DNA of 23,935 nt from an archaeon (GCA_038046625.1 JBBSVV010000007.1:18541-42475), one strand, 5' to 3'. Counted from the first letter of the stretch, positions 2,019-16,603 are shown. Numbers and translations are program-made. The notes: generated by a model from the sequence alone, not told the origin.

Positions 2019-2022
2019 CGCC

Positions 2023-2072
2023 TTTTTCTTTCTCCCACGCGAGAAAGAAAAAGCTGTGCCAAAAAGAAAGAG
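2023..2072 (+). repeat. Triplex-type element copy 1
   Basis: TTTTTCTTTCTC-CCACGC-GAGAAAGAAAAA-GCTGTGCC-AAAAAGAAAGAG; inverted and mirror match 12/12. Confidence 0.9.
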
Positions 2073-2140
2073 ACTTCAAATTTACACTTTTCTTTTAATG
2101 CATGTTTCCATGTGAAATCAAAGATTTCACGCGGCCCGGT

Positions 2141-2166: not shown

Positions 2167-2225
2167 TGGCGCGGAGAAGGGGATTCGAACCCCCGCTCCC
2201 GTTAGGGAACACGCTTGCTGCAACC

Positions 2226-2274
2226 TTTTTCTTTTCGTTTGCACGAAAAGAAAAACGTTGGCGAAAAAGAAAAG
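2226..2274 (+). repeat. Triplex-type element copy 2 (in the tRNA-Ser intron)
   Basis: TTTTTCTTTTC-GTTTGCAC-GAAAAGAAAAA-CGTTGGCG-AAAAAGAAAAG; 11/11. Confidence 0.9.
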
Positions 2275-2280
2275 TGCTAT

Positions 2281-2331
2281 TTTCTTTCTTTTCCGCTAAC
2301 GCTTTTCTTTCTCTTGCAAGAGAAAGAAAAG
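2281..2331 (-). repeat. Triplex-type element copy 3 (in the tRNA-Ser intron, inverted relative to copy 2)
   Basis: Minus strand CTTTTCTTTCTCT-TGCA-AGAGAAAGAAAAG-CGTTAGCG-GAAAAGAAAGAAA; mirror match 12/13. Confidence 0.9.
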
Positions 2332-2380
2332 GGTTATTCCAGGCGTGCGCATTGGACCGCTCTGCCATCTCCGCAACACC

Positions 2381-2428
2381 TTTTCTTTTTCTTGGCAGAA
2401 AAAGAAAAGCTGTACCAAAAGAAAAAGA
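2381..2428 (+). repeat. Triplex-type element copy 4 (abuts the tRNA-Ser 5' end)
   Basis: TTTTCTTTTTCT-TGGC-AGAAAAAGAAAA-GCTGTACC-AAAAGAAAAAGA; 12/12. Confidence 0.9.
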
Positions 2429-2531
2429 GCCAGAATAAGATTAAAAGCCTGTACCAAAAAAGAAAGCATGGTATTTGCTGATGAAAAAGAGCCTGAATAA
2501 GGTTAAAAAAGCTGGGTAGTGCTGGTTTACT

Positions 2532-3272
2532 TTAATTATATAATTTTTTGATTCCTGTTATGTCCCCGGAATTTAGGTCTCTCTTTTTGGTTTCCCCTTC
2601 GGTTGAGTAACCGTACATTGTTTCCTCGCCGCAGCCCGAATCATAGAGGTCCCCCATTCCTGCCGAGTGCCCTATTTCGTGCGTAATTATGTTTTGCACA
2701 TCCATTTTGCTTGAATCAATTGTAGCGTCTCCCCACTGGAAATCAACCTGATCCAAAAGCATGTCCCACTCTATTAATTCTCTTGTCTGTATTGGTCCGC
2801 CAAAATAGCCCCACACTGTTGTAACTGCAATGGCCCCAGTATTTGAAATGCTTCCAAATGAGAGCGTGTTATTTCCGTCTAAATTCCCGTTGTTGTATGA
2901 CGCATTATAATCTGCTGTTCCGGAACCGAAGATGTTGAATGTAACCTGGTTGTCCCAATTTGCATCCGCTGCGTTAGTAGAATTAACTATTAGTTCTTGT
3001 GATAGCCCTTGCGAGTTTGTAGGGTTTATTTTGTAAGATTCGCTTGTCTTCCATTTCGCGCCTTTCGAGAGGAAACCATAGCAAACAGTGTTGGTGTTGC
3101 CTCCGCCGCCCCCTGCCCAGGGAGGCTTTGCGTAACCTTTTTTGTAGTGTATAAAAGTGATTTTCTCCAGTGGGCCTCTGTCTGCCTTATCATTAGCCTG
3201 TGATGGAAGCGCAAAAGCCAAGCCAACAATCAAAAGGCCGGCAAAACCGAGGATAAAGAAGTTCCTGTTCAC
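2532..3272 (-). CDS. Secreted matrixin-like (M10/metzincin) zinc metalloprotease
   Basis: N-terminal signal peptide; HEIGHSAGMGD (HExxHxxGxxD) and Met-turn ETMYG. Confidence 0.88.
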   Translation of the reverse strand: MNRNFFILGFAGLLIVGLAFALPSQANDKADRGPLEKITFIHYKKGYAKPPWAGGGGGNTNTVCYGFLSKGAKWKTSESYKINPTNSQGLSQELIVNSTNAADANWDNQVTFNIFGSGTADYNASYNNGNLDGNNTLSFGSISNTGAIAVTTVWGYFGGPIQTRELIEWDMLLDQVDFQWGDATIDSSKMDVQNIITHEIGHSAGMGDLYDSGCGEETMYGYSTEGETKKRDLNSGDITGIKKLYN

Positions 3273-3374
3273 GATTATAATACTGCTTTTTTCATTACTT
3301 AAAGTTATCGAAACGTTAATTTCAATTTTTTTTGGCTAAAAGCCATTTTTTCCTGCGCCTGGGCATTCTGAGGC

Positions 3375-3770
3375 TCAACCAATGAAAATAGTGTTTTTCC
3401 CTTTGAGGTGGTAATCCTTGGTCACTATTTTGGCGCTGTTCCTTTCCGCGAGAGTCAGTATGATTGCATCAGCTAGGCTTATCCCATTTATCGCTTGCTT
3501 CAATTTAGAATGCTTTTCGCCCGCCTTGAAATAATCATTTTGGTCCTCGGCTGCCGGAACGGACAATGCCTGTATTGCGCTTGCGGCTAGTGCCCCATTT
3601 TTTCCTTTTCTCAGCACCCTGCTGATTACTTCAGCGGCAACTATGTTTGGTGTCATGATTATGTTGTCTTCCCGCTCGATTATTTTTGTTACCTGCGGAC
3701 CCAATGCCGTGGCTTCAAGGTATTCAATCCACGCGCTCGAATCCATGATAAATTTATTCCCTGACGTCAA
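3375..3770 (-). CDS. vapC: VapC-family PIN domain toxin
   Basis: IMDSSAWIEY...AAEV...ISLADAII...IVTKDYHL PIN acidic motifs; overlaps the upstream antitoxin gene. Confidence 0.88.
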   Translation of the reverse strand: MTSGNKFIMDSSAWIEYLEATALGPQVTKIIEREDNIIMTPNIVAAEVISRVLRKGKNGALAASAIQALSVPAAEDQNDYFKAGEKHSKLKQAINGISLADAIILTLAERNSAKIVTKDYHLKGKNTIFIG

Positions 3771-3954
3771 TCCTATCCTCTTCCGTGAATGGGCTTATGC
3801 CTTTTATTGCGCCGAAGTAACTTTTTTTCGGCCTCTTTACCGTGAGTTCAACGGTTTCATCGGACTTGAGGTTGAGCTCATCAACGACCTTTTTCGGGAT
3901 TCTCGCCATTATCGAGCCGCCGATTTTCTTTGTCTTCACAAGCACCGTTTCCAT
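3754..3954 (-). CDS. AbrB/MazE-type antitoxin (VapB-like)
   Basis: KTKKIGGSIMARIPKKVVDELNLKSDETVEL swapped-hairpin signature; 66 aa, directly upstream of the PIN gene. Confidence 0.85.
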   Translation of the reverse strand: METVLVKTKKIGGSIMARIPKKVVDELNLKSDETVELTVKRPKKSYFGAIKGISPFTEEDRIDVRE

Positions 3955-4019
3955 TAAATCACCAATACAATAAATTATACTTGCAGTTATATTTAAATGT
4001 TTTCAGGGTTCTTAAGTTT

Positions 4020-4439
4020 TTATTGGCTTTTGCCGTTTCCCAATAATCCCAAAATTTCCCGAGTGTTGTAAACCCCGACTTGTTCTTGCTTTTTCAGTTT
4101 TTTGTCATTTGACCAAATAGGGATTCCGAGTTTTATGGCCAACGCAAAGTAATGCTTGTCGTTGATGTCCGGGCTTATTCGTTTTCCTTCGCCTATAAAT
4201 GGTTCCACTTCGTGTTTTGGAATCACCTTTATTTTTTGGAACAGCAAGTCCTTGATGTGCTTGAACTGCCTTGGGTCTGCGCCGCTCTTCATGAAAAGAT
4301 ACGGCGCATATTTTTCAATCTCCTCGAGAACGAAGTAGGGCGTGAAAAGCTCTATCTGCTTTTCCAGTATCATTTTCCTTGTTGTAGAGTCCTTGATGAA
4401 CGCGGCAAAGAGAACATTTGCATCTACAACCAGTTTCAT
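4020..4439 (-). CDS. PIN domain protein (putative toxin)
   Basis: LVVDANVLFAA...EEI...DINDKHYFALA...IWSNDKKL. Confidence 0.88.
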   Translation of the reverse strand: MKLVVDANVLFAAFIKDSTTRKMILEKQIELFTPYFVLEEIEKYAPYLFMKSGADPRQFKHIKDLLFQKIKVIPKHEVEPFIGEGKRISPDINDKHYFALAIKLGIPIWSNDKKLKKQEQVGVYNTREILGLLGNGKSQ

Positions 4440-4441
4440 GG

Positions 4442-4657
4442 CTAATATTTGGCTGCAACCGCCTTGTTTACTTTTCTTCCAAGGCGAAGGGCATCCTTCT
4501 CCGTCAAAGAGCTTTTGGAAAGTATTTCATCCATTTTCTCCAGAACCTCAAGCTTTTCGGCAATCGCCCCACGAGCAACCTCGCTCCACCTGATTTCCCT
4601 GTGCCTGTTCATCCGCTCTTTCATTTTGTCTGATATTGACATTGTCATGCTGACCAC
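4442..4657 (-). CDS. Ribbon-helix-helix antitoxin-like protein
   Basis: SMTMSISDKMKERMNRHREIRWSEVARGAI RHH pattern; likely GTG start at 4657 after a GGTGAG SD; immediately upstream of the PIN gene. Confidence 0.8.
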   Translation of the reverse strand: MVSMTMSISDKMKERMNRHREIRWSEVARGAIAEKLEVLEKMDEILSKSSLTEKDALRLGRKVNKAVAAKY

Positions 4658-4870
4658 AGTTCTCACCAAAGAATATTGCTTCTCAACTATTTAAATAATT
4701 TACGTTAAAAACGTTAATTGCGTGCATGTGCCTATTAGGTATTTGGGCAGGATTCAGAAAGCCTCTGGCGCAACAGTTTCGGCTGTTGGGTGCGAGTACT
4801 ATCTTCATCTTGTGGCTCGATAGTAAATTTGGCTGTTGGGTGCGATAATTATCCACTTTGCAAGGGGATA

Positions 4871-4942
4871 AGCCTCTGGCGAGAATTGAACTCGCGACCC
4901 CGTCCTTACCAAGGACGTGCTCTACCACTGAGCCACAGAGGC
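4871..4942 (-). tRNA. tRNA-Thr(GGT)
   Basis: GCCTCTG/CAGAGGC acceptor, CGTCC-TT-GGT-AA-GGACG anticodon arm, GTTCAATTC T loop; no CCA encoded. Confidence 0.95.
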
Positions 4943-4983
4943 GAAAAAACCTACAAATTAGCGTTGGGAAAGGGTTAAAAAAG

Positions 4984-6237
4984 TCAGTTCAGGCCCTTAA
5001 TCCTTGAAGCAATTTTTTGGGCATCCTCAAAGGAGAATTCCTCCTCCTTGCCCGTTGCAAGCTCCTTGAGCTTGAAGCGCCCGCCCTTCAGTTCGTTCTC
5101 GCCGAGCACAATCACAAAAGGGATGCTTCTCTTGTTCGCGTACTCGAAATTCTTTTTGATGTTCCTTCCAGCGAGATCAATTTCAACTGAAACGCCTTTT
5201 GAACGGATTTTTGACGCGAGCTTTGTCGCCTCGATTCCCTCTTCCTTCGAAAAAGGCATGATGAACAAATCCGTATTCGGGCCGATAATCAATTCGGGTT
5301 CAAGCGCATCAAAAAGCCGGTCAACACCGAAGCTGATTCCGACAGCAGGAGTCGCCTCGCCGCCGTAAAGCCCAATCAATTTGTCATACCTTCCTCCCGC
5401 GCCCATGCTCGGGCCATCATTCAATTTTATTTCAAAAACATTGCCCGTATAATATTCGAGGCCGCGCGCAAGCGAGAGATCAAAAACAACTTCAGCAAAA
5501 TTATTTGCCTTGCAGAGTTCTAAGATCTCCTCTAATTCTTTTAGCGAATCTGTTTGCCCAATTTTTTCTTTTACGCCTTCCAGTGAATTTACAAAAATCT
5601 TATCAAGAATCAAATCATCAATTCCTTTTTCCCTGAATTCGCGGCGCACTTCCTTCTCGCCTATTTTATCAAGCTTGTCAATGCTCCTGAATGCATCCTT
5701 GATCTGTTCCTCTGAAACGCCGCAGCTCTTCGCGAGTTCCTCAAGAACAACCCGATTATTTACAGTGATTTTGAATTCGAACCCGAGTTTCCTCATTACA
5801 TCAACTGAAATCTGCAGTATTTCAAAATCCGCCATCACAGATTTTACTCCCGCAATATCGACATCGGCCTGCGTGAACTCGCGATAGCGCTTTGCCTGGG
5901 GCCTGTCATACCTGTAAACCGTGCTGATGCAGTACCTCTTGAATGGCCTCTGTAGCATCCTGTTCGTTGCAACCACGCGCGCAAACGGAACCGTCAAATC
6001 GTATCTCAATCCTAATTCCCTTTCGCTCTTGTCCCTGAACCAGTAAATTTCCTCCTTTATCGCTTCGCCTCCAGAGCCCTTCGCGGCAAGCAAATCAAAC
6101 TCCTCAACAATCGGTGTCTGCAGGGGCTCGTATCCATAACTCTCGAAAACCCTGCGCAGAACATCTTCAATGAACTGCTTCTTCTTCGCCTGTTCCGGCA
6201 GAAAATCCCGCATACCTTTCACTGTCTGGTAAGGCAT
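4984..6237 (-). CDS. hisS: Histidine--tRNA ligase
   Basis: VKGMRDFLP, LRYDLTVP, YRYDRPQAKRYREFTQ, LARGLEYYTG, GGRYDKL motifs; probable start MPYQ at 6237 with GAGGTG SD. Confidence 0.97.
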   Translation of the reverse strand: MPYQTVKGMRDFLPEQAKKKQFIEDVLRRVFESYGYEPLQTPIVEEFDLLAAKGSGGEAIKEEIYWFRDKSERELGLRYDLTVPFARVVATNRMLQRPFKRYCISTVYRYDRPQAKRYREFTQADVDIAGVKSVMADFEILQISVDVMRKLGFEFKITVNNRVVLEELAKSCGVSEEQIKDAFRSIDKLDKIGEKEVRREFREKGIDDLILDKIFVNSLEGVKEKIGQTDSLKELEEILELCKANNFAEVVFDLSLARGLEYYTGNVFEIKLNDGPSMGAGGRYDKLIGLYGGEATPAVGISFGVDRLFDALEPELIIGPNTDLFIMPFSKEEGIEATKLASKIRSKGVSVEIDLAGRNIKKNFEYANKRSIPFVIVLGENELKGGRFKLKELATGKEEEFSFEDAQKIASRIKGLN

Positions 6238-6343
6238 CAAAAGCACCTCACATAAAGTGCTCTTACTATCGAGTCCCAATAGGGGCGAAGATAGTACTCG
6301 CTCCCCTTGCACCCGACAGGGCGAACCGGCGAAAGGGTTGAAG

Positions 6344-6419
6344 GGCGACCGCTGGGATTTGAACCCAGCTCCAAGGCTCCACAGGCCTCGATCCTAAACC
6401 AGGCTAGACGACGGTCGCC
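6344..6419 (-). tRNA. tRNA-His(GTG) with genomically encoded G-1
   Basis: G-GCGACCG/CGGTCGC-C acceptor, GAGGC-CT-GTG-GA-GCCTT anticodon arm, GTTCAAATC T loop. Confidence 0.95.
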
Positions 6420-6474
6420 ACCAAAAAAAGAGTATTTGCAGAATTTGTTTGTTTGAGTAAGGGTTTCGCGAGAA

Positions 6475-6513
6475 TCAGCGGAAATGCATGTAATGAAGTA
6501 AATCCCTTCTCAT
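6475..6513 (-). CDS. Putative leaderless leader peptide MRRDLLHYMHFR
   Basis: ATG about 30 nt downstream of TATTTAAA (6544-6537); two His codons; upstream of tRNA-His and hisS. Confidence 0.3.
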   Translation of the reverse strand: MRRDLLHYMHFR

Positions 6514-6559
6514 GCACTATTTTAGAGTCCCTTACCTTTAAATAGGTTTTTGCAGGCGC

Positions 6560-8344
6560 TTACTTGGAGACTTTTTCTTCCGGGATGCAGAACGTTCCCC
6601 TGATTTGTTCAACCTTGTCTTTATCTTTTCCGCCGTTCATGCCCGGGCAGGCAAAGTTCCCGGAGTTCACGGAATCAAGCTGCACAAAGCAGCTCGAATT
6701 ATTGTAATCCGCGGGCGCATAGACGAGAGCCATGTAAACAGGTATTTTGCCAGATTCCTTTGTCGAGTAATCATACTCCATTGACGCGAGTGCAGGTGGA
6801 ATTCCCCAGTTTTTGTTATGCAATGGATAGAAACCGTGGCTGGAGTAATTGTCTATGTAGAACTGAATATTGACAAAACCATACGGGTCATCGGCCGATG
6901 CGGCCGTGCAGTTCATGGTAGAAATCCCGTCGGGTTTCCAGCTGAGCCTGTATTCGTTGAACTTCGGGAACTTTTCATTCGGGAAATCCCCGTTCATTGC
7001 ATTTATGGTTGCGCCGGAAGCCTTGAGTGTGCAGTAAGGCACAGCGCACCTGATTATCGAATCAGCGAGCTTCCCCGTTGAATCATAATGGAAGGAAACT
7101 TCCCGCGACTTTTCATCGAAGGTTGCGTCAACTGCCCTAACGATTACTTTGTATGTTCCATCCGAAAAAGAGAACCCAGTTTCAGAGTCAGTTTTGCCTA
7201 TTGTGTATGAATACTTTCCGTTTCCCTCGAAAGTTATTCCGCTGTCCAGCGCAAGGAGCTTTTTGAAAATTCCAGCTTCATTATTTCCTGCGCTGATTGC
7301 CGGCTCGAACTGGCTGCTCGATATGTTGAGCCTGTAAAGGTAAATGTAATAACCGAAATTCGGCTTCTGCTTTATCATCCAATCAATTTTCACTCCTTTG
7401 TTTCCCGTAATTATTCCGTTCTGCAGCGGTGAAACGATTTCAATGAACCTTGAGCCCGGCTGCTCCGTGCACATTTGTATGTTTGCCGCGCTGCTGATTT
7501 TTAATGGGCCGAGCTTTCTCGAGGCATCCGCATCCAGATCAGTGCCCGTTTTGCCGGTGTTTAACTTGCATGACGCCTCGTATGCGCCGCTTAAATCCCC
7601 CTTCACGGAGTAATCAAAGCGCGCATATGTGTTTCCTGAAGTGTCCTCGAAGTAACCCACAAACCTCGAGCCGCTGTTAGTAGGGAAAGTCGCTTCCGAT
7701 TCAACTGAATTCGTGATGTCGCTTATGCCGCACTGTACAGTGGCTTTGCCGTTGCATGTGTCGCTGATTGTGTTTACGTAAAGCAACTTCACGGCCTTTC
7801 CTTTCGGCGCCTGTTCATTGCACGCCTTTATCTCGTAAATGCTTATGTCCACGAATCTTCCCGCTGCGCGCAGAGAATCCGCGTCCAAATCCGTGTCTCC
7901 CTTGAATGCGTTCAGCATGCATCCCAAATCGTAGGTTCCGCTCAATCCTTTGTCCACGTTGATGTCAAACACCGAAGTGAGGCCTCCGGAATCGGTATCA
8001 TGCGCATTCCACACGATTGATTTTGAAGGCAAATTCCTGTAAAGCTCCAAAGAATTGGTTTTTTTGTCAGTTGAACAGGTCACCTTTATCAGGCCGTTGC
8101 ACATGTCAATATCCGCTTTTGCCTCGGTTATTCCCGGGGGCTTGGTGTAATTGTTAGGGGGAATTACGTTGCTGTTTCCGGGGGTGCTTCCATTTCCGTT
8201 CCCGCTTGTGTTGGCAGGAGGCTGTGCCACGGGCTGCGGCGGCGTTGCTCCGTTCCCCTGCTGGTTCGGCTGTGCCTGCTGGGGAGCGGCACAACCCGCA
8301 ACCAAAAGAGCCGCAATAACCAATGTGGCAAAAACAAGTTTCAT
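6560..8344 (-). CDS. Surface lipoprotein with a duplicated Cys-containing domain
   Basis: Lipobox LLVAGC, P/Q/N-rich linker, two ~97-aa repeats each with CNG..V.C, LSG.Y...C.LN, TDLDAD and C.EQ. Confidence 0.85.
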   Translation of the reverse strand: MKLVFATLVIAALLVAGCAAPQQAQPNQQGNGATPPQPVAQPPANTSGNGNGSTPGNSNVIPPNNYTKPPGITEAKADIDMCNGLIKVTCSTDKKTNSLELYRNLPSKSIVWNAHDTDSGGLTSVFDINVDKGLSGTYDLGCMLNAFKGDTDLDADSLRAAGRFVDISIYEIKACNEQAPKGKAVKLLYVNTISDTCNGKATVQCGISDITNSVESEATFPTNSGSRFVGYFEDTSGNTYARFDYSVKGDLSGAYEASCKLNTGKTGTDLDADASRKLGPLKISSAANIQMCTEQPGSRFIEIVSPLQNGIITGNKGVKIDWMIKQKPNFGYYIYLYRLNISSSQFEPAISAGNNEAGIFKKLLALDSGITFEGNGKYSYTIGKTDSETGFSFSDGTYKVIVRAVDATFDEKSREVSFHYDSTGKLADSIIRCAVPYCTLKASGATINAMNGDFPNEKFPKFNEYRLSWKPDGISTMNCTAASADDPYGFVNIQFYIDNYSSHGFYPLHNKNWGIPPALASMEYDYSTKESGKIPVYMALVYAPADYNNSSCFVQLDSVNSGNFACPGMNGGKDKDKVEQIRGTFCIPEEKVSK

Positions 8345-8439
8345 GCTTAAAATTAAGTTATTTCAGTATATAATCCTAATTGAAAATGCGATTGTTTAAA
8401 TAAGAAAAAGCCCTAATTTCAAGCGGTTGATGTTTGTAT

Positions 8440-8556
8440 GCTGCCATTACGAAAGGGGCCTAAGGTCGGATTTAACAGGCATCTCGCAGCATTTGCCCAC
8501 CTGCTTGGTTTCGGGCCAAAGGAACACCTGCGCATGAGGCAGCCCCCAAAGCCCCA
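8440..8556 (-). ncRNA. Candidate structured ncRNA of unknown family
   Basis: GC-rich intergenic block with several stems whose mismatches become G-U pairs on the minus strand; BRE/TATA-like GCCGAAAATTTATTAT upstream (8587-8572). Confidence 0.45.
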
Positions 8557-8647
8557 GCGCCCTGGGCAATAATAATAAATTTTCGGCTTTTTTTCCTTAA
8601 CCTGTTACTGCTAAAAACTCTTCCGCGCAGAATTCTTTCGGTTTCCA

Positions 8648-9325
8648 ATGAACCAAAAAAAGAACATCGCAATCTGCGTCCCCTCGGGGCGCTTTGTCGA
8701 CTTCAGCTTCTTCAAGTCATACGCGAATACGATAGGGCAACTGATGCTGGCTTACAACACCGTTACCCTTACGGTTGCTTCGCCATTGATTGCGGAGAAC
8801 CGAAACGAAATACTCCGCAAGGCCTTTTCCATTGAGGAAAAAACTCCCGGATTCCTGATTGATTATTTGCTGTGGATTGACAACGACATTTCGTTCTCCT
8901 TTGAGCAGGCCAGGAAACTTTTCTCGCACCTCGAAAGCGGCAAGGATTTCATTTCAGGAACCTACTTCAATCTCGTGGGAGAGGAAATAAAGCCGGTCGC
9001 ATACAAAACAAAGGGCGAGGGCTATGAGTGGCTATCCGAAAAACAATTGTTCGGAACAATGGAAGTTGACTCTGCTGGATTCGGTTTCTGCGCAATGAAA
9101 ATGGATGTTTGCCGAAGAGTTTTCGAAAAATTCAAGCCTCGCCCTTTTGACATGCGCTACCTAGCAAATGGCTCCGTCATTACCGAGGACCAGTTGTTTT
9201 GCGAGCGCGCGAAAGAGCTTGGCTATAAAATATGGCTCGACTCGGAATTGGTTGTGAGGCACGCGAAAGGATTCCTGCCGCCGCAACCTTTTTCTTTCTC
9301 TTACAAAGAGAAAGAAAAACCTTGA
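8648..9325 (+). CDS. GT-A fold (GT2-like) glycosyltransferase
   Basis: IAICVPS, RNEI, LLWIDND (DxD), VDSAGFGF, TEDQLFC, VRH motifs; C-terminus runs into a triplex element. Confidence 0.85.
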   Translation: MNQKKNIAICVPSGRFVDFSFFKSYANTIGQLMLAYNTVTLTVASPLIAENRNEILRKAFSIEEKTPGFLIDYLLWIDNDISFSFEQARKLFSHLESGKDFISGTYFNLVGEEIKPVAYKTKGEGYEWLSEKQLFGTMEVDSAGFGFCAMKMDVCRRVFEKFKPRPFDMRYLANGSVITEDQLFCERAKELGYKIWLDSELVVRHAKGFLPPQPFSFSYKEKEKP

Positions 9326-9341
9326 CGAAAAAGAAAGAGAA
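9289..9341 (+). repeat. Triplex-type element copy 5 (between convergent GT and proA ends)
   Basis: TTTTTCTTTCTCTT-ACA-AAGAGAAAGAAAAA-CCTTGACG-AAAAAGAAAGAGAA; 14/14. Confidence 0.92.
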
Positions 9342-9347
9342 AAAAAA

Positions 9348-10646
9348 TCACTTCAGTTTTTTGTGCAGGAACTTTTTCGCATTTTTTCCTGAATAATCCG
9401 CGACAATGTGCCCATTGCCTTTCAGCAAATACTTGTAGCTTAAAAGCGCTTCAACCCCGCTCGGGCCGCGCGCATGTATTTTCCCAGTTGAAATGCCCAC
9501 TTCCGCGCCCTTTCCATACCTGTAACCGTCTGCAAAGCGCGTTGACGCGTTCCAGTAGACTCCAGCAGAATCAACAGCCTGCAGGAATTTTGCGGCATTC
9601 TTCCTGTCTTCTGTTATTATGCCGTCAGTGTGCTTCGAGCCGAACCTGTTTATGTGTTCGATTGCCTCCTCAACACCCTTCACTGTTTTTATTGAAAGTA
9701 TCAAATCGTTGTACTCCGTTGCCCAGTCTTCTTCACTTGCGTTTTTGGCTTCGAAGCCCGCTTTCCCGAGAATCGCGAGCGCCTTTTCATCGCACCTGAG
9801 TTCCACTTTTCCGGCGAGCGCTTTTGCATACTGCGGCAAAAACTTTTTCGCAATTTTTTCATGCACGAGAAGCGTTTCCATTGCATTGCAGACTGCGGGG
9901 TATTGGCATTTCGCGTCCACGCAGATTTTCACGGCTTTTTTGATGTCCGCCTTTTCATCCACGTACTCGTGGCAGATTCCATCAGAATGCCCAAGCACGG
10001 GAATGCTGGAGTTCTCCTGGATGAACTTCACGAATGCGCTGCTTCCCCTCGGGATAATGAGGTCAATGCGGGAGTTCATTTTGATTAGCTCCTGAACCGC
10101 TTCCCTTGAATCAACAAGCTGCACGGCTTCAAAAGGCAAACCAGTTCCTTTCAGAGCGGCCTGAACGCAATCCAGAAGCGCCCTGTTCGTGTTCAATGCC
10201 TCGCTTCCGCCCTTCAAAATCACGGCGTTTCCCGTCTTGATTGAAAGCGAGCTTATCTGAACAAGCGCATCGGGGCGCGCCTCGAAAACCGCGCAAATTA
10301 CTCCTATAGGAGTTGAGATTTGCTCCAGCTCGAGCCCCTTATCGAGAAGCGTTTTTGAAATAGTTTTCCCCACAGGATCAGGCTGTTTCTTCACCCCTTC
10401 AATCTCATGCAGAATTTCGGAAAACTTTTCCTCCGAGAGAAGCAGCCTTTTCAGGAGCTGTGCTGCAAGATTATTTTTTTTGGCTTCGGCAACATCCTTT
10501 TCGTTTGCGGCAATTATTTTAGCTTTGCTTTTTTTCATTTCCAAAACGATGAGTGCGAGTGCCCTGTCCCTTTCTTTTGCGCTTGAAATGCTCATTGCGA
10601 GAAAAGCCTTTTTTGCGAGAACCGCCTTTTCATTTGCTTCGCTCAT
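9348..10646 (-). CDS. proA: Gamma-glutamyl phosphate reductase
   Basis: PIGVICAVFEARP, LKGGSEA, IIPRGS, CNAMETLLVH, NASTRFADG, EVGISTGKIHARGP. Confidence 0.97.
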   Translation of the reverse strand: MSEANEKAVLAKKAFLAMSISSAKERDRALALIVLEMKKSKAKIIAANEKDVAEAKKNNLAAQLLKRLLLSEEKFSEILHEIEGVKKQPDPVGKTISKTLLDKGLELEQISTPIGVICAVFEARPDALVQISSLSIKTGNAVILKGGSEALNTNRALLDCVQAALKGTGLPFEAVQLVDSREAVQELIKMNSRIDLIIPRGSSAFVKFIQENSSIPVLGHSDGICHEYVDEKADIKKAVKICVDAKCQYPAVCNAMETLLVHEKIAKKFLPQYAKALAGKVELRCDEKALAILGKAGFEAKNASEEDWATEYNDLILSIKTVKGVEEAIEHINRFGSKHTDGIITEDRKNAAKFLQAVDSAGVYWNASTRFADGYRYGKGAEVGISTGKIHARGPSGVEALLSYKYLLKGNGHIVADYSGKNAKKFLHKKLK

Positions 10647-11416
10647 TTTCCCGCCTCAAAAAAAGAGCCGGAACAATTTCCGTCAAGAACGCATTTCACT
10701 GCGCCCTTGCGCGCCTTGCATACTGCCGCGCTTATGCCGCGCGAAACGACTTTCTGCACCGCAAGCGTCTTGGATTTTATTCCGCCCAAACCATATTTTG
10801 ATTTCCGGCCGTGCACCATTTCTCCCGCGAGCAGCTGCTTAAGGCTCCTGATTTTCTTGGCCTTGTGGTTCTCCTTGGGATTCTCGGTAAAAAAACCGTC
10901 TACATCTGTAAGCAGAATCATCAAGTCCGCATTGAAATTCACCGCCATCAATGCTGCGAGCCCATCATTGTCCGAGAACGGCTTTGTTTCCGAAAGCGCC
11001 TCGACCGCAACAACATCATTCTCGTTGATTATTGGAATTGCCTTCATTTCAAACAGCTTTTCCAGTGTGCTTCCCAGGTTTGAAAGCGCGCCATGGTTCG
11101 TGAAGACATTCGGAGTCAAAAGGACCTGCGCAATCACTTGGCCATGCTTCCTGAAAGCCTTTTCGTACTCGCTCATCAGAAGGTTCTGGCCTATGGCGGC
11201 CATTGCCTGCCGTGTCTGCATGTCTGGAGGAAAGCCGCGGTGCATTTTTTCAATTCCAAAGCCTATTGCGCCGCTCGTAACAAGCATGACATCTGAACCG
11301 TTTTTCCGCGCTTCGGAAAGTTCCTGCGCAAGGCTCTTGATTATTGATTTATTTATCCTGTCGCCGCGCATCAGGGCGTTGGTCCCAATTTTTACAACAA
11401 TTCTCTTGAACGCCAT
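10643..11416 (-). CDS. proB: Glutamate 5-kinase (no PUA domain)
   Basis: RIVVKIGT, VTSGAI, AAIGQ, PIINENDVV, FSDNDGLAA, LTDVDG; 257 aa. Confidence 0.95.
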   Translation of the reverse strand: MAFKRIVVKIGTNALMRGDRINKSIIKSLAQELSEARKNGSDVMLVTSGAIGFGIEKMHRGFPPDMQTRQAMAAIGQNLLMSEYEKAFRKHGQVIAQVLLTPNVFTNHGALSNLGSTLEKLFEMKAIPIINENDVVAVEALSETKPFSDNDGLAALMAVNFNADLMILLTDVDGFFTENPKENHKAKKIRSLKQLLAGEMVHGRKSKYGLGGIKSKTLAVQKVVSRGISAAVCKARKGAVKCVLDGNCSGSFFEAGK

Positions 11417-11421
11417 TTTTT

Positions 11422-12198
11422 TTATCTCCCTAACTCCTCGCTCCGTTTGCGCGCGGCCGTAACCGTTTCCGAAATGATTTTTTTGAATTCCCCGCTCTCC
11501 AAAAATTTCCTTCCCGCAACCGTTGTCCCGTTAGGCGAAGAAACCATTTCCACAACTTCAATAGGCCGCATATTATTTTCCTTCAACAATTTTGCCGTGC
11601 CCAGAACAGTATTCAAAGCGAGTTCGCGGGAATCCTTTCCACTCAACCCGTTTTTTTCCCCCGCTTCCGCAAGGCAATCAATGAAATATGCCGCAAATGC
11701 AGGCCCCGAGCCGCTCAGGGCCGTAACCGCATCAAACTTTTCTTCAGGCATTTCAACCGCGCTCCCGCATTTCTCCAAAAGGCTCTTTATTATTTTCTTT
11801 TCCGCTGAATTCAGGTTCTGCGAAGTGAAAACATTCATTGATGCTCCCGCAAGCGCATTGATGTTAGGCATCACCCTCACAATCTTCGCTTCGCCTAGAA
11901 CCGATTTCATTGATGAAATTTTTTTCCCCGCTGCAATCGAAACAACTATTTTTCCCTTTGCATCGCTTTTGATTTCCGAAAGCGTTTCGCCAAGGTCCTG
12001 CGGCTTCACGCACACAAAAATAATGCCTGATTTTTTGGCAGTTTCAGAAGCCGAATCGGCAGCTTCAAAGCCGTCCTGCTTCGCCTTTGCAAGCGCCTCT
12101 TTGTTGCGGTCAAAAATAACCGTTTTTTCCCCTGATTTTTTAAGCGAAGACGCGAGCGCAGAGCCCATTTTGCCGAAGCCTATGAAGCCTATCCGCAT
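11422..12198 (-). CDS. proC: Pyrroline-5-carboxylate reductase
   Basis: GFIGFGKMG, VKPQ, SIAAG, VRVMPN, ALSGSGPA, VSSPNGTT. Confidence 0.96.
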   Translation of the reverse strand: MRIGFIGFGKMGSALASSLKKSGEKTVIFDRNKEALAKAKQDGFEAADSASETAKKSGIIFVCVKPQDLGETLSEIKSDAKGKIVVSIAAGKKISSMKSVLGEAKIVRVMPNINALAGASMNVFTSQNLNSAEKKIIKSLLEKCGSAVEMPEEKFDAVTALSGSGPAFAAYFIDCLAEAGEKNGLSGKDSRELALNTVLGTAKLLKENNMRPIEVVEMVSSPNGTTVAGRKFLESGEFKKIISETVTAARKRSEELGR

Positions 12199-12227
12199 GC
12201 ATTAACTCAACCCAGAAAAAGTATTTA

Positions 12228-12410
12228 ATATCAAAGGACAAAAATATGGATACAAAATTTGTCCTTTGATATAGCAGACCACGAAAGTTTTTCGGCATTT
12301 ATGGTGGTCTGCTAGATAGCAGACCAAAAATGTCGCCGAAATATTTTATTGGTCTGCTATAGCTATCAAAAGACATTTAAAAAAGTTTCAGAATTAATGT
12401 CTTTTGATAT
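12228..12410. repeat. A-B-B-A array of four ~45-bp palindromic units
   Basis: Arms ATATCAAAGGACAAA (15 bp), TAGCAGACCAC (11), ATAGCAGACCAA (12) and TATCAAAAGACATT (14), each with a perfect inverted partner. Confidence 0.9.
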
Positions 12411-12469
12411 AAAATCCGAAGATGCGAGCGGAGCGTTTTTTATGCCCTGGCGCACCAATAATGGTTAAG

Positions 12470-13348
12470 CTAAACAGCCCTTGCAGGAGTCCGATAGCGG
12501 TCCTTGAATAAGGTTTTTGGGACTGTTTTACGTTGCATCTGCTCAAGCTCAATGTAGTCTTTTTTTACTTTTATTTTATGCCTAAATATTGAAATAGGGG
12601 TAAAATTGTACCTGCTGTTTTTTCTTTTTAAACTAAATCCTGATTGAAATCTATCCTTAAAGCCTCCTACTAAGATATCTGCCAACTGCACTCCTTCAGA
12701 ATTTGTTTCTTCAGGTTTTTGATATAATTCTTTAAGTTGTTTTTTTAAGTGGATTTTTCCCCAAATGTCTATATTTACCCTATCGGATGATTTATCTTTA
12801 TTTTTTGGCGAGTTGTGGTATTCTATTTGTGGAACCATGTTATTTTGTTCCATGTATCTGATTTGTCTTTCATATCCTTCATATTCATTTGTTGGGGCTT
12901 CTGCGAATAACAGCCAAACTAACTTTGCATACATTTCTGTTTGACACATTTCACTAAAATATTTATATTTTGCTCCAGTACTAAACTCAAAACTTTTTCC
13001 CTCTTTTTCCATTTTCTGAAATTCATTTTTAAGAGAGCTAAAATTGTTGGTGAATGACACAGCAACATCTAACTTTAAATCTGAATTTAACAAATTTTCC
13101 CAAGCTATTTCACGTCTTTTATAAGATCTTATATCTCCATAATGCAACTCTCTTAGATTTGTATTAAGTTTTTTACGAATATTTGAATGAACTTTTATGA
13201 TTTCATCATGTGAATTAGAATGAACGCATCCAACAAAAAATATTGGCTTGCTCTTTTGTGGTAAACCTTCTTCTGGATCTCCAGATTCATCAAAATATAT
13301 GTATTTTTCTGGTTCAAATTCTTCATAAATAAATTTAATTTTTTTCAT
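12470..13348 (-). CDS. DUF3800-family protein
   Basis: N-terminal YIYFDESGD and C-terminal GVQLADILVG motifs; visibly AT-richer than flanking genes. Confidence 0.8.
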   Translation of the reverse strand: MKKIKFIYEEFEPEKYIYFDESGDPEEGLPQKSKPIFFVGCVHSNSHDEIIKVHSNIRKKLNTNLRELHYGDIRSYKRREIAWENLLNSDLKLDVAVSFTNNFSSLKNEFQKMEKEGKSFEFSTGAKYKYFSEMCQTEMYAKLVWLLFAEAPTNEYEGYERQIRYMEQNNMVPQIEYHNSPKNKDKSSDRVNIDIWGKIHLKKQLKELYQKPEETNSEGVQLADILVGGFKDRFQSGFSLKRKNSRYNFTPISIFRHKIKVKKDYIELEQMQRKTVPKTLFKDRYRTPARAV

Positions 13349-13549
13349 AACAAAATTGATTGTAAACTTAATAAATTTCTATCTGAGTTTTAGAACTGCC
13401 TTAGTGAGGAATTTTTTCTTAGGACTCTGCTTTTCTCGGCTTAAACCTTCGCACATCTGAACCTTTGCTCTTGGTGCAAAGGGTTTAATGCCTCCAAAAG
13501 CAGCAGAGCCGTCCACGAAAAAATTCATCCACGAAAAGGAGGTGGTTTG

Positions 13550-13678
13550 ATGAGTTTTTCTATTCAATCCCCAAATAGGGGTGAAATAGTCAGAGCCATT
13601 GAGGCTATCGAGAATGGCGAGGAGCTTACCGACAGGGAGCTCTGGATTCTGGAAGGGCTAGGGGGCGATTTTGAATGA
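13550..13678 (+). CDS. Small hypothetical protein (42 aa)
   Basis: GGAGGTGG SD; MSFSIQSPNRGEIVRAIEAIENGEELTDRELWILEGLGGDFE; ATGA overlap with the next ORF. Confidence 0.6.
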   Translation: MSFSIQSPNRGEIVRAIEAIENGEELTDRELWILEGLGGDFE

Positions 13679-13827
13679 GTCGCTCCGTTTTCCTTTTCAT
13701 TTTCCTATTTTGCATTGCTCCGTTGTTCTGGCTTTATGTCCTCACAGGGAAAGAGTGGCTTTTGGATTTGGCGATGCATGCCCTTTCCTTTTTCTTCGGC
13801 TTTTCTTTTGCGGAGGCGATTCAATGA
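13675..13827 (+). CDS. Small membrane protein (50 aa)
   Basis: MSRSVFLFIFLFCIAPLFWLYVLTGKEWLLDLAMHALSFFFGFSFAEAIQ; ATGA overlaps at both ends. Confidence 0.55.
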   Translation: MSRSVFLFIFLFCIAPLFWLYVLTGKEWLLDLAMHALSFFFGFSFAEAIQ

Positions 13828-14819
13828 CCGCACCGGCAATGTACCCTTCCAATAACTCTTTGATAAAGGTCAATGAACATCTATCCATGCGATTTAATCT
13901 CTTTGATTTGCACGATTCGGCCGAAGACATTAATGTAAGGCGTTTGATAAGGGTTTACTCCGTTGTGCCAAAATACTCACAATTCAAGTCTGGGCCTTGG
14001 GCGGGGCAGGCTATCAGAGTTACTTCATTTCTTAGAAAGGTGAATGAGAAGCTTAAGAAAGAAATCGGCTCAGGATGGAAAAGAGAATGGCTGAATAACA
14101 TCGGCTATAAGTTTGCCCTGAAAAGTATTGGCGATTGGTTTATTGGGAGGGCTTCGGTTCCTTTAATAGCTTTAAAGAAGCTGGAAGTATTTGGTTTGGA
14201 CTGTGAAGTAAGTGTGCTTCTTAACAATTGTAATTATTTTTCTTGTACCACAAGAGCCCCTTATAAATTGCCGCATTTTTTGACTCCTGATTTGGCATAT
14301 CTAACAGGTGCTATACTTGGTGATGGTCACATAAGAAGGACTGAAGATAAAATTTCCTTTGAGGTTTCCGAAAAATGGCTTTCGAATAAGTTTATTGAAA
14401 AAGTTGTAGCTGTTTTTGAACAAAAATTAAGAGAAAGTATTCGCATAGGCCGTGGGAAAGATAAATATTTGGCGAGGTTTGACAATAAATCAGCTAAAAG
14501 ATTGTTCACAAAAATAATTGGAATCCCTTCCGGAAAAAAGTCGCATATTATCACGGTCCCTGAATTGATAAAAGCGTCTTCAAAAGAATGTCAAACCGCT
14601 TTTCTTGAAGGGGTATTTGACACAGATGGTGGGAGCAGAGGCAAGAACCGCCTAGGTTTAACGAGTGCCTCGAAACAGTTCAGGGACGGCATAATTGATT
14701 TACTTGAAGTGCAAGGTATCAATGCTTTTAAGGATGAGTGGGTAAATAAAATGTATAACCGGTCTTACTACGGATTAAGGCTCTCAAAAGGAGTGAAGCC
14801 AAGCTTTATGCAGGAGTAG
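13824..14819 (+). CDS. Free-standing two-motif LAGLIDADG endonuclease-like protein
   Basis: LAYLTGAILGDGHI and AFLEGVFDTDGG motifs; probable start MTAP at 13824 (GGAGG SD); no intein termini; stop TAG lies inside tRNA-Leu. Confidence 0.88.
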   Translation: MTAPAMYPSNNSLIKVNEHLSMRFNLFDLHDSAEDINVRRLIRVYSVVPKYSQFKSGPWAGQAIRVTSFLRKVNEKLKKEIGSGWKREWLNNIGYKFALKSIGDWFIGRASVPLIALKKLEVFGLDCEVSVLLNNCNYFSCTTRAPYKLPHFLTPDLAYLTGAILGDGHIRRTEDKISFEVSEKWLSNKFIEKVVAVFEQKLRESIRIGRGKDKYLARFDNKSAKRLFTKIIGIPSGKKSHIITVPELIKASSKECQTAFLEGVFDTDGGSRGKNRLGLTSASKQFRDGIIDLLEVQGINAFKDEWVNKMYNRSYYGLRLSKGVKPSFMQE

Positions 14820-14893
14820 CGAAGCGGTCAAACGTGCACGGTTTAGGGCCGTGTGGCTTAGTGCCTTCGGAGGTTCGAATCCTCCCTCCTGCA
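14810..14893 (+). tRNA. tRNA-Leu(TAG)
   Basis: GCAGGAG/CTCCTGC-A acceptor, CACGG-TT-TAG-GG-CCGTG anticodon arm, long variable arm, GTTCGAATC T loop. Confidence 0.95.
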
Positions 14894-14898
14894 TAACC

Positions 14899-14951
14899 TT
14901 TTTTCTTTCTCGTTGGAATAGAAAGAAAAAATGTTAACGAAAAAAGAAAGA
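14899..14951 (+). repeat. Triplex-type element copy 6 (tRNA-Leu 3' trailer)
   Basis: TTTTTTCTTTCT-CGTTGGAAT-AGAAAGAAAAAA-TGTTAACG-AAAAAAGAAAGA; 12/12. Confidence 0.9.
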
Positions 14952-15012
14952 GAAAAAGAACCCTGTCCCGTACGGGGCGAGGAAGCATTAAGGGAAAAGA
15001 AAAGTGTATTAT

Positions 15013-15114
15013 TTACATCATGTCTTTGCCTTTCCACGCCCACTTCCCGGATCCGTCAACTTTCATATGTTTCTTGTTTGCATTCTTTGCGTCTTTGTTT
15101 CCCATGCCGAACAT
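15013..15114 (-). CDS. Small basic protein (33 aa)
   Basis: MFGMGNKDAKNANKKHMKVDGSGKWAWKGKDMM; GGGGTGA SD and CCGAAAAAAAGTATTAAAA promoter-like motif upstream. Confidence 0.5.
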   Translation of the reverse strand: MFGMGNKDAKNANKKHMKVDGSGKWAWKGKDMM

Positions 15115-15176
15115 TATTTCACCCCTGTATAAGTAATTCGCCATAGCCGGCTTTTAATACTTTTTTTCGGCAAAAT

Positions 15177-15297
15177 CGCTCCTGCTGGGATTCGAACCCA
15201 GGTCAAGGGCTCGTTCCAACCATTTTTGGTCAAGCTTTTTTGCCTGCAAAAAAGGTTGCCGGAAGCCCTTATGCTATCCGGGCTACACCACAGGAGC
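15177..15297 (-). tRNA. tRNA-Arg(CCG) with a 47-nt intron at 37/38 (15212-15258)
   Basis: GCTCCTG/CAGGAGC-G acceptor; AGGGC-TT-CCG-G|A-GCCCT; perfect BHB (TTCC/GGAA central helix, AACC/GGTT outer helix). Confidence 0.94.
15223..15253 (-). repeat. Miniature triplex-type element copy 7 (in the tRNA-Arg intron)
   Basis: Minus strand AACC-TTTTTT-GCAGGC-AAAAAA-GCTTGACC-AAAAA; same AACC start and 8-nt linker as the longer copies. Confidence 0.75.
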
Positions 15298-15303
15298 AAC
15301 ACC

Positions 15304-15354
15304 TTTTTTCTTTTCTTGGCAGAAAAGAAAAAAGCTGTACCAAAAAAAGAAAAG
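15304..15354 (+). repeat. Triplex-type element copy 8 (abuts the tRNA-Arg(CCG) 5' end)
   Basis: TTTTTTCTTTTCT-TGGC-AGAAAAGAAAAAA-GCTGTACC-(A)AAAAAAGAAAAG. Confidence 0.88.
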
Positions 15355-15438
15355 GGCAAAGAATTGAAAAGCACGCTGGAAGCGTGCCAAGGCCCTGCGA
15401 AGCAGGGGCTGTCGTTCCCGCCGGGCGAAACCGGCGAG

Positions 15439-15510
15439 CGCTCCCACAGGGAATCGAACCCTGATCGTCAGCTCCGCAAGCTGAAATCCTATCCGTTAGA
15501 CGATGGGAGC
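15439..15510 (-). tRNA. tRNA-Arg(GCG)
   Basis: GCTCCCA/TGGGAGC-G acceptor, TCAGC-TT-GCG-GA-GCTGA anticodon arm, GTTCGATTC T loop. Confidence 0.95.
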
Positions 15511-15515
15511 ACACC

Positions 15516-15560
15516 TTTTCTTTTTGTTTGGCCAAAAGAAAAGCTGTACCAAAAGAAAAA
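15516..15560 (+). repeat. Triplex-type element copy 9 (abuts the tRNA-Arg(GCG) 5' end)
   Basis: TTTTCTTTTT-GTTTGGCC-AAAAGAAAA-GCTGTACC-AAAAGAAAAA; 9 triads. Confidence 0.85.
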
Positions 15561-15584
15561 GCCTTGAAAAGAGTTTAAAACCGC

Positions 15585-15690
15585 TTCTCTTTCTTTTTGA
15601 TCACCTTGCAAAGCTTGGCTTTGCGAGGCCTCGCAGAACTTGGGTTCTGCAAAGGACCTTTTTACTTTCTCTTCGCAAGAGAAAGAAAAA
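15585..15690 (-). repeat. Triplex-type element copy 10 with a structured insert in the linker (3' of map)
   Basis: Minus strand TTTTTCTTTCTCTT-GCG-AAGAGAAAG(T)AAAAA-[60 nt]-AAAAAGAAAGAGAA. Confidence 0.8.
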
Positions 15691-15697
15691 GGTTGTT

Positions 15698-16603
15698 TTA
15701 AAGCAAACGAATGACCTTGCCTTCGTGGGCCAAAAGCGTGGTTTCGGCCTGGCAAACGGTTTTCCCTTCCTCTTCCTTCAGCAAAGGAAACGCCATTATG
15801 CACTTCTTCTGCATGAGTTCCCGCATGCCTATTTTGCGCGCAAAATCACTCATTTTCAGGTTCCTTTGCAGCCAGCGCTCCGCAAACGGGAGTTTCGAGT
15901 AATTATCTTCGACAAAAGCAAGTATTTTGCGCGCCTCCATTCCCCGCACCGGAACCTTTTCCGCAACCTGGAAAATCTCGGCCTGCGAGCCTTCCCTTAC
16001 AAAACCTTCGCCGTCGGTTGCAAAAGGCTCAATCGCAATAGCCATTCCTTCCTCTATTTCCCTTGAATCATTGTTCGCAATGTTCGGAATCGAAGGGCCG
16101 ACATGCGCATCGTATTCAGAAACCCCGTGGCCGCTTAAATTCTGTATCGGCCTGAAGCCCTTTGCCCGCAAAGTGCTCTCGATTTTTTTTCCAAGCGCGC
16201 CGACAGAGACACCTTCCTTAAACATTTTCACGGCCTCTTCAAGGGCCTGCTCCGTTGTTTCAACCATTTCCTTGTGCTTTCCTGAAAAATCAATTGTGAA
16301 AGCCGAATCCGCGATGAAGCCGTTCACATGAACGCCAATGTCAACCTTAATCACTGCGCCTTCGAGAAGAACATCTGCCGATTCGAACGAAGGTGTGTAA
16401 TGCGCGGCAACATTATTCATTGAAAGGTTTATCGGGAATGCCGGGGCGCCGCCCTTTTTCCTGATTTCTGATTCAATGTGCTCCGCAAACTCGTAAAGGT
16501 TCGCGCCTTCCTTGAGTTTTTTTGCCGAGAACTCCTGCATTTCCTTTGTGATTTCGCCGGCTTTCCTGTAATTCTCCACAGTCTTTTTGTCCATGAAATT
16601 CAC
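15698..16603 (-). CDS. map: Methionine aminopeptidase type II
   Basis: AFPINLSMNNVAAHYTP, KVDIGVHVNGFIADSAFT, NLSGHG, AIEPFAT, QAETT; start may be MDKK at 16594. Confidence 0.96.
   Translation of the reverse strand: MNFMDKKTVENYRKAGEITKEMQEFSAKKLKEGANLYEFAEHIESEIRKKGGAPAFPINLSMNNVAAHYTPSFESADVLLEGAVIKVDIGVHVNGFIADSAFTIDFSGKHKEMVETTEQALEEAVKMFKEGVSVGALGKKIESTLRAKGFRPIQNLSGHGVSEYDAHVGPSIPNIANNDSREIEEGMAIAIEPFATDGEGFVREGSQAEIFQVAEKVPVRGMEARKILAFVEDNYSKLPFAERWLQRNLKMSDFARKIGMRELMQKKCIMAFPLLKEEEGKTVCQAETTLLAHEGKVIRLL

Follow-up and report, generated by a model that had tools for sequence, protein, structure and literature searches.

A dispersed triplex-type repeat at tRNA ends and other gene boundaries of a groundwater archaeon

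The window analysed in this study is a DNA stretch of 23,935 nt from a groundwater archaeon (GCA_038046625.1 JBBSVV010000007.1:18541-42475). An earlier note on this DNA had described the sequence GGTACAGC at a fixed position before three tRNA genes, those of tRNA-Ser, tRNA-Arg(CCG) and tRNA-Arg(GCG). The three GGTACAGC sites are ordinary copies of a dispersed fold-back triplex repeat of about 55 nt, which consists of a pyrimidine third tract, a 7-8-nt linker (here GGTACAGC), a 14-15-bp pyrimidine/purine hairpin and a 5-bp clamp. Throughout the family, the clamp end abuts the edge of a mature RNA (the 5' or 3' end of a tRNA, an exon-intron junction or the 3' end of the RNase P RNA) or a stop codon. 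On balance, and with limited confidence, we consider it probable that this fold-back triplex repeat sits hairpin-first at gene ends, that its leader is trimmed by RNase P, and that the fold is one of single-stranded DNA.

The host genome (986 kb in 57 contigs, 85% complete) was scanned as a whole with a script that detects the hairpin and the third tract, and 31 three-tract copies were found in this 1-Mb genome. For the relatives, two linker patterns were searched and 80 stretches were fetched. The same script and ARAGORN were run on them, giving 87 non-redundant copies in 16 genomes. Covariation was scored in 101 copies from this genome and the relatives, picked by linker and tract composition alone, and clamps and mismatches were tallied in 118 copies from the same two sources.

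Anatomy of the repeat and covariation of its three tracts

In the window, GGTACAGC was matched three times against 0.17 expected, and three matches were reached in 0 of 100 shuffles. At each site, a pyrimidine tract and GGTACAGC are followed by a second pyrimidine tract, which is complementary to a purine tract on the other side of a loop of 4-8 nt; GGTGT or GGTGTT then leads directly into the tRNA. On the minus strand, the copy before tRNA-Ser (copy 4) reads CTCTTTTTCTTTT-GGTACAGC-TTTTCTTTTTCT-GCCAAG-AAAAAGAAAAG-GTGTT and is followed by GCGGAG (tRNA +1 = 2374). On the same strand, the copy before tRNA-Arg(CCG) (copy 8) ends in GGTGTT before GCTCCTG (tRNA +1 = 15297), and that before tRNA-Arg(GCG) (copy 9) ends in GGTGT before GCTCCCA (tRNA +1 = 15510). 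This reading bears out the gap of 5-6 nt, GGTGT or GGTGTT, that had been claimed before the three tRNAs. The three copies also share one orientation, as had been stated, and all are sense with respect to their tRNA.

The tract that comes first mirrors the purine arm, with matches at, for example, 12/12, 14/14 and 15/15 positions. Such a mirror tract could run parallel to the purine arm and bind it as the Hoogsteen strand of a triplex. Read from the complementary strand, the element runs from the pyrimidine arm through loop, purine arm and linker to the mirror purine tract. The repeat thus has three tracts on one strand with a Hoogsteen-compatible third, which is the definition of an intrastrand triplex motif. 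The tracts are 9-16 nt long, against a stem setting of 6-15 nt in ITxF, and the linker, as a loop of 7-8 nt, exceeds the 1-6-nt setting of ITxF and fits the 0-10-nt setting of Hoyne quoted in PMC4666352.

The tract sequences vary from copy to copy, and 53 distinct purine arms were found. Among the 101 copies, the mirror match was perfect in 75, compared with 25 when the tract was read as a direct repeat, and the Watson-Crick arms were perfect in 82. After the tract partners were shuffled, the mean was 17.5 perfect mirrors and the maximum was 27 in 300 shuffles; related copies are not independent, so no probability is attached to this comparison. The mirror relation is kept while the tracts differ, and templated copying cannot yield mirrors, which argues for selection on three-stranded pairing. 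Selection on the three-stranded fold would therefore be the straightforward reading of the mirror covariation.

A G.G mismatch was present in the clamp of 91 of the 118 copies. Within the tracts, 14 mismatches were found, several of them inherited within one sub-lineage. Nine of the 14 were C.A on the third-tract strand, which corresponds to G.T wobbles on the complementary strand, and T.G never occurred. Fourteen mismatches are too few to choose between RNA and DNA.

Placement at gene ends, linker variants and turnover

In this genome, 12 of the 31 copies have a tRNA gene no more than 5 nt away. Seven of these copies precede the tRNA and share its orientation (Gly-GCC, Val, Ser-GGA, Arg-CCG, Arg-GCG, Ser-TGA and Cys), and the other five follow the tRNA and are inverted (Pro-GGG, Val, Trp, Leu-TAG and Ala-GGC). 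In the relatives, 20 copies were at tRNA 5' ends and 18 at 3' ends. The hairpin end touches the tRNA, with the third tract outward, in all 50 flanking copies (12 here and 38 in relatives; 27 at 5' ends and 23 at 3' ends), so the earlier remark that the hairpin generally faces the adjacent gene holds for every one of them. No third-tract end was found within 8 nt of a tRNA; the nearest was 10 nt away in the relatives and 16 nt away in this genome. The purine run ends 1-6 nt from the ARAGORN boundary in 50/50 copies, and the clamp end lies 0-2 nt off the mature tRNA end or overlaps it by one base. By an arithmetic estimate, about 0.05 element ends would be placed this close to 68 tRNA boundaries by chance. 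The fixed spacing described for the three sites is therefore real, but it belongs to the whole family and to both tRNA ends, not to one subtype or to 5' leaders.

The same polarity was seen at other genes. The RNase P RNA gene is present (C15:1626-1999, locus L105), and a full element stands flush at its 3' end (2000-2064). In five copies of this genome, the hairpin end lies -3 to +5 nt from a stop codon, and only one copy has its third-tract end against a gene. An Rfam search (E <= 0.01) of 15 element-bearing stretches of this genome added only the 3' end of 23S rRNA, the RNase P RNA and two tRNAs, and at the same threshold it gave no named partner for the copies C6:1398, C50:141 and C5:51. 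On C15, a pyrimidine/purine hairpin (499-523) also follows the 23S rRNA 3' end (478).

The earlier note had also proposed that linker subtype goes with gene context. In this genome, eight copies carry GGTACAG. The three window copies precede tRNAs, two others (Trp and Ala-GGC) follow tRNAs and are inverted, and the remaining three lie elsewhere; of these last, one is flush with a stop codon. Four of the seven copies at 5' ends here have GGCCAAG, GGTCAAG or GTCAACG linkers. In the relatives, GGYACAG linkers were found at 4 tRNA 5' ends, 14 tRNA 3' ends and 3 introns, with 14 copies far from a tRNA or with none called. For AACG-type linkers the corresponding numbers were 8, 0, 3 and 11, for CAAG-type linkers 8, 2, 0 and 3, and for other linkers 0, 2, 7 and 8. 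CAAG and AACG types together therefore stand at 16 5' ends versus 2 3' ends, and the tabulation of the relatives shows a tendency that is the reverse of the proposed rule. A likely reason is that the end bases overlap the tRNA: GGTTG often shares its last G with G+1 of the tRNA, and ACACC its first A with the discriminator, A73. Orthologous tRNAs in different genomes bear different linkers and different tracts. The Ser-GGA gene, for example, has GGTACAG here, GTCAACG in G008 and in the congener G001, and GCCAACG in G012. The linker variant (GGTACAG, CAAG or AACG) is a mark of lineage and no code for position.

The copies turn over between relatives. In the congener G001, a GGTACAGC copy precedes tRNA-Arg(GCG) with the same GGTGT|G junction and with other tracts, and tRNA-Arg(CCG) follows 17 nt further on without element and without intron. 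A 3' copy at tRNA-Lys is found in G001 and G008 and is missing here. Of 201 genomes sampled in the phylum, 41 had the GGYACAG linker pattern; none of 19 from outside the order had it, and a reversed control pattern was almost never found. Copy numbers peaked at 14, 14, 13 and 9 in four genomes of three families, and four of six congeners of the 13-copy genome were without any GGYACAG copy. This patchy, bursty distribution fits a self-propagating repeat.

An orphan tRNA 3' end that begins in the T-loop (Thr, Cys or Ser) stands after the clamp GGTGT (GGCTG at L029) at five places, with TTCTGG in between. These places are C7:11135-11189 and C50:141-191 in G000 and the loci L003, L029 and L032. 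At C7:11135, the orphan tRNA end makes a 30-nt direct repeat beside a scaffold gap.

Explanations for the repeat at gene ends

In the favoured explanation, a copy at each window locus would fill the space from the TATA-like box to the tRNA. The tRNA would be transcribed with at least the hairpin as its 5' leader, and RNase P would remove this leader. By secondary-structure prediction, the putative leaders are single hairpins of -12.8 to -19.9 kcal/mol. The upstream TATA-like boxes, the RNase P RNA gene of this genome and the predicted leaders of 0-25 nt at element-free tRNAs also speak for this reading. The family would be a self-propagating, fast-turning-over repeat that persists where RNA is trimmed or transcription ends, and the T-runs of the repeat may act as termination signals. 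Copies face either way relative to transcription, which makes a fold of single-stranded DNA more likely than one of RNA as the selected structure.

Several points weigh against this explanation. Its transcription starts, leader content and termination are read from the sequence. The predicted leaders would bear T5-T6 runs, similar to the T6-T7 runs of local tRNA terminators, and this fits poorly with transcription of the leader. Linker patterns were used to sample the loci in relatives, the related genomes are not independent, and for 26 of the 87 copies there no tRNA was called in the vicinity. The 31 copies showed no consistent target duplication; one 30-nt flanking repeat adjoins a scaffold gap and was therefore set aside as insertion evidence. 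Genes for a Y1 transposase (PF01797), TnpB (PF07282) or a reverse transcriptase (PF00078) were not found in the 85%-complete genome, and neither target duplication nor an associated transposase, the marks of a MITE- or REP-type element, was seen. Moreover, different genera have copies on the same side of the same tRNAs (5' for Ser, Cys and Gly-GCC; 3' for Pro, Trp and Ala), which could point to a host function rather than a selfish repeat.

Such a function might be punctuation, with the T-runs on both strands forming a bidirectional terminator or insulator in which triplex and hairpin reinforce pausing. One T-run of the repeat reads away from the gene and two read towards it. In 3' copies, the first arm gives a T-run right after the discriminator base, just as the trailers of element-free tRNAs open with T6-T7 runs. 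Five copies stand no more than 5 nt after stop codons, and one lies between convergent genes. All this suits punctuation, but T-runs alone need no exact three-way covariation, and at 5' ends two T-runs would stand between the upstream TATA box and the tRNA and cut the tRNA's transcript short. In addition, bacterial triplex repeats that had been tested earlier showed no terminator activity (PMC4666352). We regard host punctuation as unlikely.

Another explanation places the triplex in RNA. In sense copies, the pre-tRNA leader would form U.A-U and C+.G-C triples, and the RNase P cut would leave a buried 3' end as in MALAT1, so that an RNA triple helix caps the precursor or stabilises the upstream transcript. 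In PMC8457004, PMC4836648 and PMC13541005, the strand order of MALAT1 (Hoogsteen U, Watson-Crick U, A-rich, RNase P site) is the one met here. The RNase P RNA gene is present, and five of the seven 5' copies of this genome have a same-strand gene ending 46-136 nt upstream. The 20 tRNA 5' copies of the relatives, in which TATA boxes were judged by one search pattern, are also informative. A box was found at -27 to -31 in 2, only at -45 to -58 in 8 and not at all in 10, and a box only 45-58 nt upstream predicts a start upstream of the third tract, which would then be inside the transcript in 8/20. Against an RNA triplex, 23 of the 50 flanking copies are inverse, so that the sense RNA would carry a purine third strand, which is not known to form stable RNA triplexes. 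Further, the tract mismatches are C.A in 9/14 and never U.G, archaeal transcription should end at the T5-T7 runs of the third tract, and the nearest TATA box at the three window copies would leave the third tract untranscribed. This explanation is doubtful, and we think it rather improbable. If true, the RNA triplex would be an archaeal counterpart of the triple-helix/tRNA-like module of MALAT1, giving a nuclease-resistant upstream end or a stable leader RNA, and such a module would stem from a repeat that also seeds tRNA introns.

The earlier note itself had favoured a start of transcription in the linker. With the start at the GG of the linker, the third tract would lie in the melting region (-13 to -1) and act on initiation at the DNA level, as a property of the GCTGTACC subtype. 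Ruler counts at the three window loci confirmed its TATA-like boxes from 2446, 15370 and 15580, which begin 30, 29 and 30 nt before the linker's first G. An archaeal TATA/BRE promoter would have an A/T-rich box of about 8 bp at 24-31 nt before a purine start. The three boxes resemble the local consensus, TTTTCAAT the least. Element-free tRNAs have TTTAAA, TTTTTAACC or TTTTATAAAA boxes that start 31-57 nt before +1, which gives predicted leaders of 0-25 nt. The order TATA, about 9 nt, third tract and GG recurs at four further loci, with TATA-to-linker spacings close to 30 nt: tRNA-Ser(TGA) on C21 (33 nt), Arg(GCG) in G001 (27 nt), L032 in G003 (30-31 nt) and L048 in G020 (31 nt). A T-rich tract just before the start would suit a promoter-proximal melting element in archaeal promoters. 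A start in the linker therefore seems plausible, from the box positions, for a subset of loci. As a general explanation it fails in several respects: among the 20 copies of the relatives, the boxes found only at -45 to -58 in 8 and the 10 copies in which the pattern gave no box speak against it, and two of the seven 5' copies here (Gly-GCC and Val) have no box near -30. The 23 of 50 flanking copies at 3' ends can have no promoter role there, the subtype is not tied to 5' leaders, and a plain H-DNA promoter element could do without a purine arm on the same strand. A role at the DNA level or in the open complex is no property of the family as a whole, and we hold this model to be quite improbable.

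The weakest explanation is a promoter inside the element, with the linker as B recognition element, the pyrimidine arm as a weak TATA box, a start in GGTGT and a nearly leaderless tRNA; it would account for the fixed gap of 5-6 nt, and the arm stands 32-36 nt before +1, as in the shortest TATA-to-+1 distances of element-free tRNAs (31-36 nt), but it is very improbable, for the arms lack the A-rich half of the local TATA consensus, and identical arms with the same hairpin span (median 31-33 nt in every context, and so not discriminating) occur in 3' and intron copies, where they would fire antisense into the tRNA.

Half elements that have a true TATA box directly after the linker (GGTACAGG-CTTTTAATC, GGTACAGC-TTTTAATC and GGTCAAGC-TTTTAA) also speak for such an internal promoter, and they recur in several genomes. 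Upstream of tRNA-Ser(GGA), a module of TATA, TTATTCWGG and CTCTTTTTC is found twice (window 2421-2510, minus strand) with a half element between the two, and the distal copy of the module aligns with the promoter of a congener. Ser genes of two further genera and tRNA-Ser(TGA) on C21 are likewise preceded by a half element plus TATA. Evidently, repeat pieces and promoters interconvert.

Comparison with known repeats and further features of the window

Intrastrand triplex repeats are known from bacteria. In PIT elements, BoxC and TMECO (Holder et al. 2015, PMC4666352), three tracts lie on one strand: a pyrimidine arm is separated by a loop from a purine arm, and after a short loop a second purine arm mirrors the first. 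Like the repeat of this study, they are numerous, lie scattered between genes in either orientation and come with no known gene for their mobilisation. They differ in being of the G/C-rich CCCTCNCCC type, whereas the archaeal repeat is A/T-rich with T.A-T or A.A-T triads. The TMECO/BoxC consensus in the same paper, CCCTCNCCC-N3-6-GGGNGAGGG-N3-GGGNGAGGG, does not describe the archaeal copies, whose tracts are T/C and A/G with about 80% A/T. Other differences from PIT are the second loop, which here is a conserved linker of 7-8 nt that is partly in the clamp with its G.G mismatch, the archaeal host, and the flush, hairpin-first position at tRNA ends, intron junctions and stop codons. The available text of PMC4666352 reports no link of PIT repeats to classes of flanking genes.

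The ENE of MALAT1 and MEN-beta, as described in PMC8457004, PMC4836648 and PMC13541005, has the same order as the sense copies, with the RNase P site before a tRNA or tRNA-like fold. The Hoogsteen strand is a free 5' tail here, whereas in MALAT1 it is one side of an internal loop. Half of the archaeal copies are oriented so that their RNA cannot form such a helix, and the third tract is only putatively transcribed. REP/BIME and MITE-like repeats are similar in being short, structured and high-copy, in lying at gene ends, and in their lineage-variable copy number and turnover between relatives. Unlike them, the archaeal repeat has no terminal inverted repeats, no regular target duplication and no RAYT/Y1 transposase gene, and its mirror-repeat third tract has no counterpart in these families. 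As in H-DNA, there is a mirror repeat, made up of the third tract and, 7-8 nt away, the pyrimidine arm. H-DNA, however, needs no complementary purine arm on the same strand, whereas all three tracts covary here.

A full-text literature search found no paper on triplex-type repeats at archaeal tRNA genes, and the ITxF genome lists in the supplements of PMC4666352 might include archaeal hits. For the bacterial repeats of this kind, neither a function nor a rule of position has been established. The A/T-rich archaeal variant has a three-way covariation that is explained only by Hoogsteen pairing, and a strict hairpin-first polarity at tRNA cut points. It offers a handle on whether such triplexes form in cells and on how archaeal tRNA introns, leaders and trailers are gained.

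The coordinates of the window features are listed in Table 1. ARAGORN -i called the gene at 2167-2374 Ala(GGC) with a 121-nt intron, and the gene was absent from the Rfam hits at the gathering threshold. Its anticodon loop, long variable arm and G73 lead us to read it as tRNA-Ser(GGA).

Table 1. Copies of the repeat, tRNA genes and promoter-like boxes in the window (positions counted from its first nucleotide)
Feature	Position	Strand	Remark
Linker GGTACAGC, three sites	2409-2416, 15334-15341, 15543-15550	-	Sequence match
Copy 4, pyrimidine third tract CTCTTTTTCTTTT, mirror of purine arm	2417..2429	-	12/12 mirror match
Copy 4, linker GGTACAGC	2409..2416	-	Last 5 nt pair with GGTGT, one G.G mismatch
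Copy 4, pyrimidine arm, loop, purine arm, GGTGT clamp	2376..2408	-	Hairpin of -18.7 kcal/mol (predicted fold)
Probable tRNA-Ser(GGA), intron of ~120 nt	2167..2374	-	Anticodon loop CUGGAAU, long variable arm, G73
Two family copies, head to head inside the tRNA-Ser(GGA) intron	2221-2274; 2280-2336	-; +	Hairpins face the exons
TATA-like TTTTAATC	2439..2446	-	30 nt upstream of linker G, copy 4
Half element before TTTTAATC: CTTTCTTTTTT and GGTACAGG	2456-2466; 2448-2455	-	Same layout at L032 and C21
Second, canonical-looking TATA box TTTTTTAACC	2501..2510	-	Aligns with promoter of same-genus orthologue
Copy 8, whole	15299..15356	-	Third tract 15342-15356, linker 15334-15341, hairpin and clamp 15299-15338
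tRNA-Arg(CCG), 47-nt intron	15177..15297	-	Rfam, ARAGORN -i
TATA-like TTTTCAAT	15363..15370	-	29 nt upstream of linker G; weakest of the three
Copy 9, whole	15511..15561	-	Third tract 15551-15561, linker 15543-15550, hairpin and clamp 15511-15547
tRNA-Arg(GCG)	15439..15510	-	ARAGORN, Rfam
TATA-like TTTTAAAC	15573..15580	-	30 nt upstream of linker G, copy 9
Family copy, GGCACAG linker	2022..2073	-	94 nt downstream of tRNA-Ser
Family copy, GTCAAGG linker	9289..9347	-	Between convergent genes; third tract flush with stop of an aldehyde-dehydrogenase-family open reading frame
Family copy, GTTAACA linker	14894..14960	-	Hairpin end flush with tRNA-Leu(TAG) 3' end

Other observations concern the surroundings of these features. 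The 47-nt intron of tRNA-Arg(CCG) contains a hairpin of the CAACC...GCTTG type with short A/T arms (window 15231-15258). An open reading frame of 382 aa with a LAGLIDADG domain (13671-14819, plus strand) runs into the 5' end of tRNA-Leu(TAG) (14809-14894). Within 15585-15699, a family hairpin (15651-15699) follows the stop codon of an M24 peptidase gene (map), and its mirror tract lies at about 15585-15598. A 55-nt insert parts this hairpin from the mirror tract and carries small GC-rich hairpins, including GAGGCCTC. A GAGGCCTCG module like that of the insert follows the hairpins after tRNA-Ala(CGC) and tRNA-Leu(CAA).

In contigs assembled from short-read DNA (four runs), breaks fall at the elements, and the apparent joints reflect matches of one repeat copy with another. 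The window also holds a near-perfect palindrome of 90 nt with 45-nt arms (12270-12361). At this site, DNA contigs of one public run join 12271 to 12360 and drop 88 nt, with TA at both ends, which suggests presence and absence of another, MITE-like insert.

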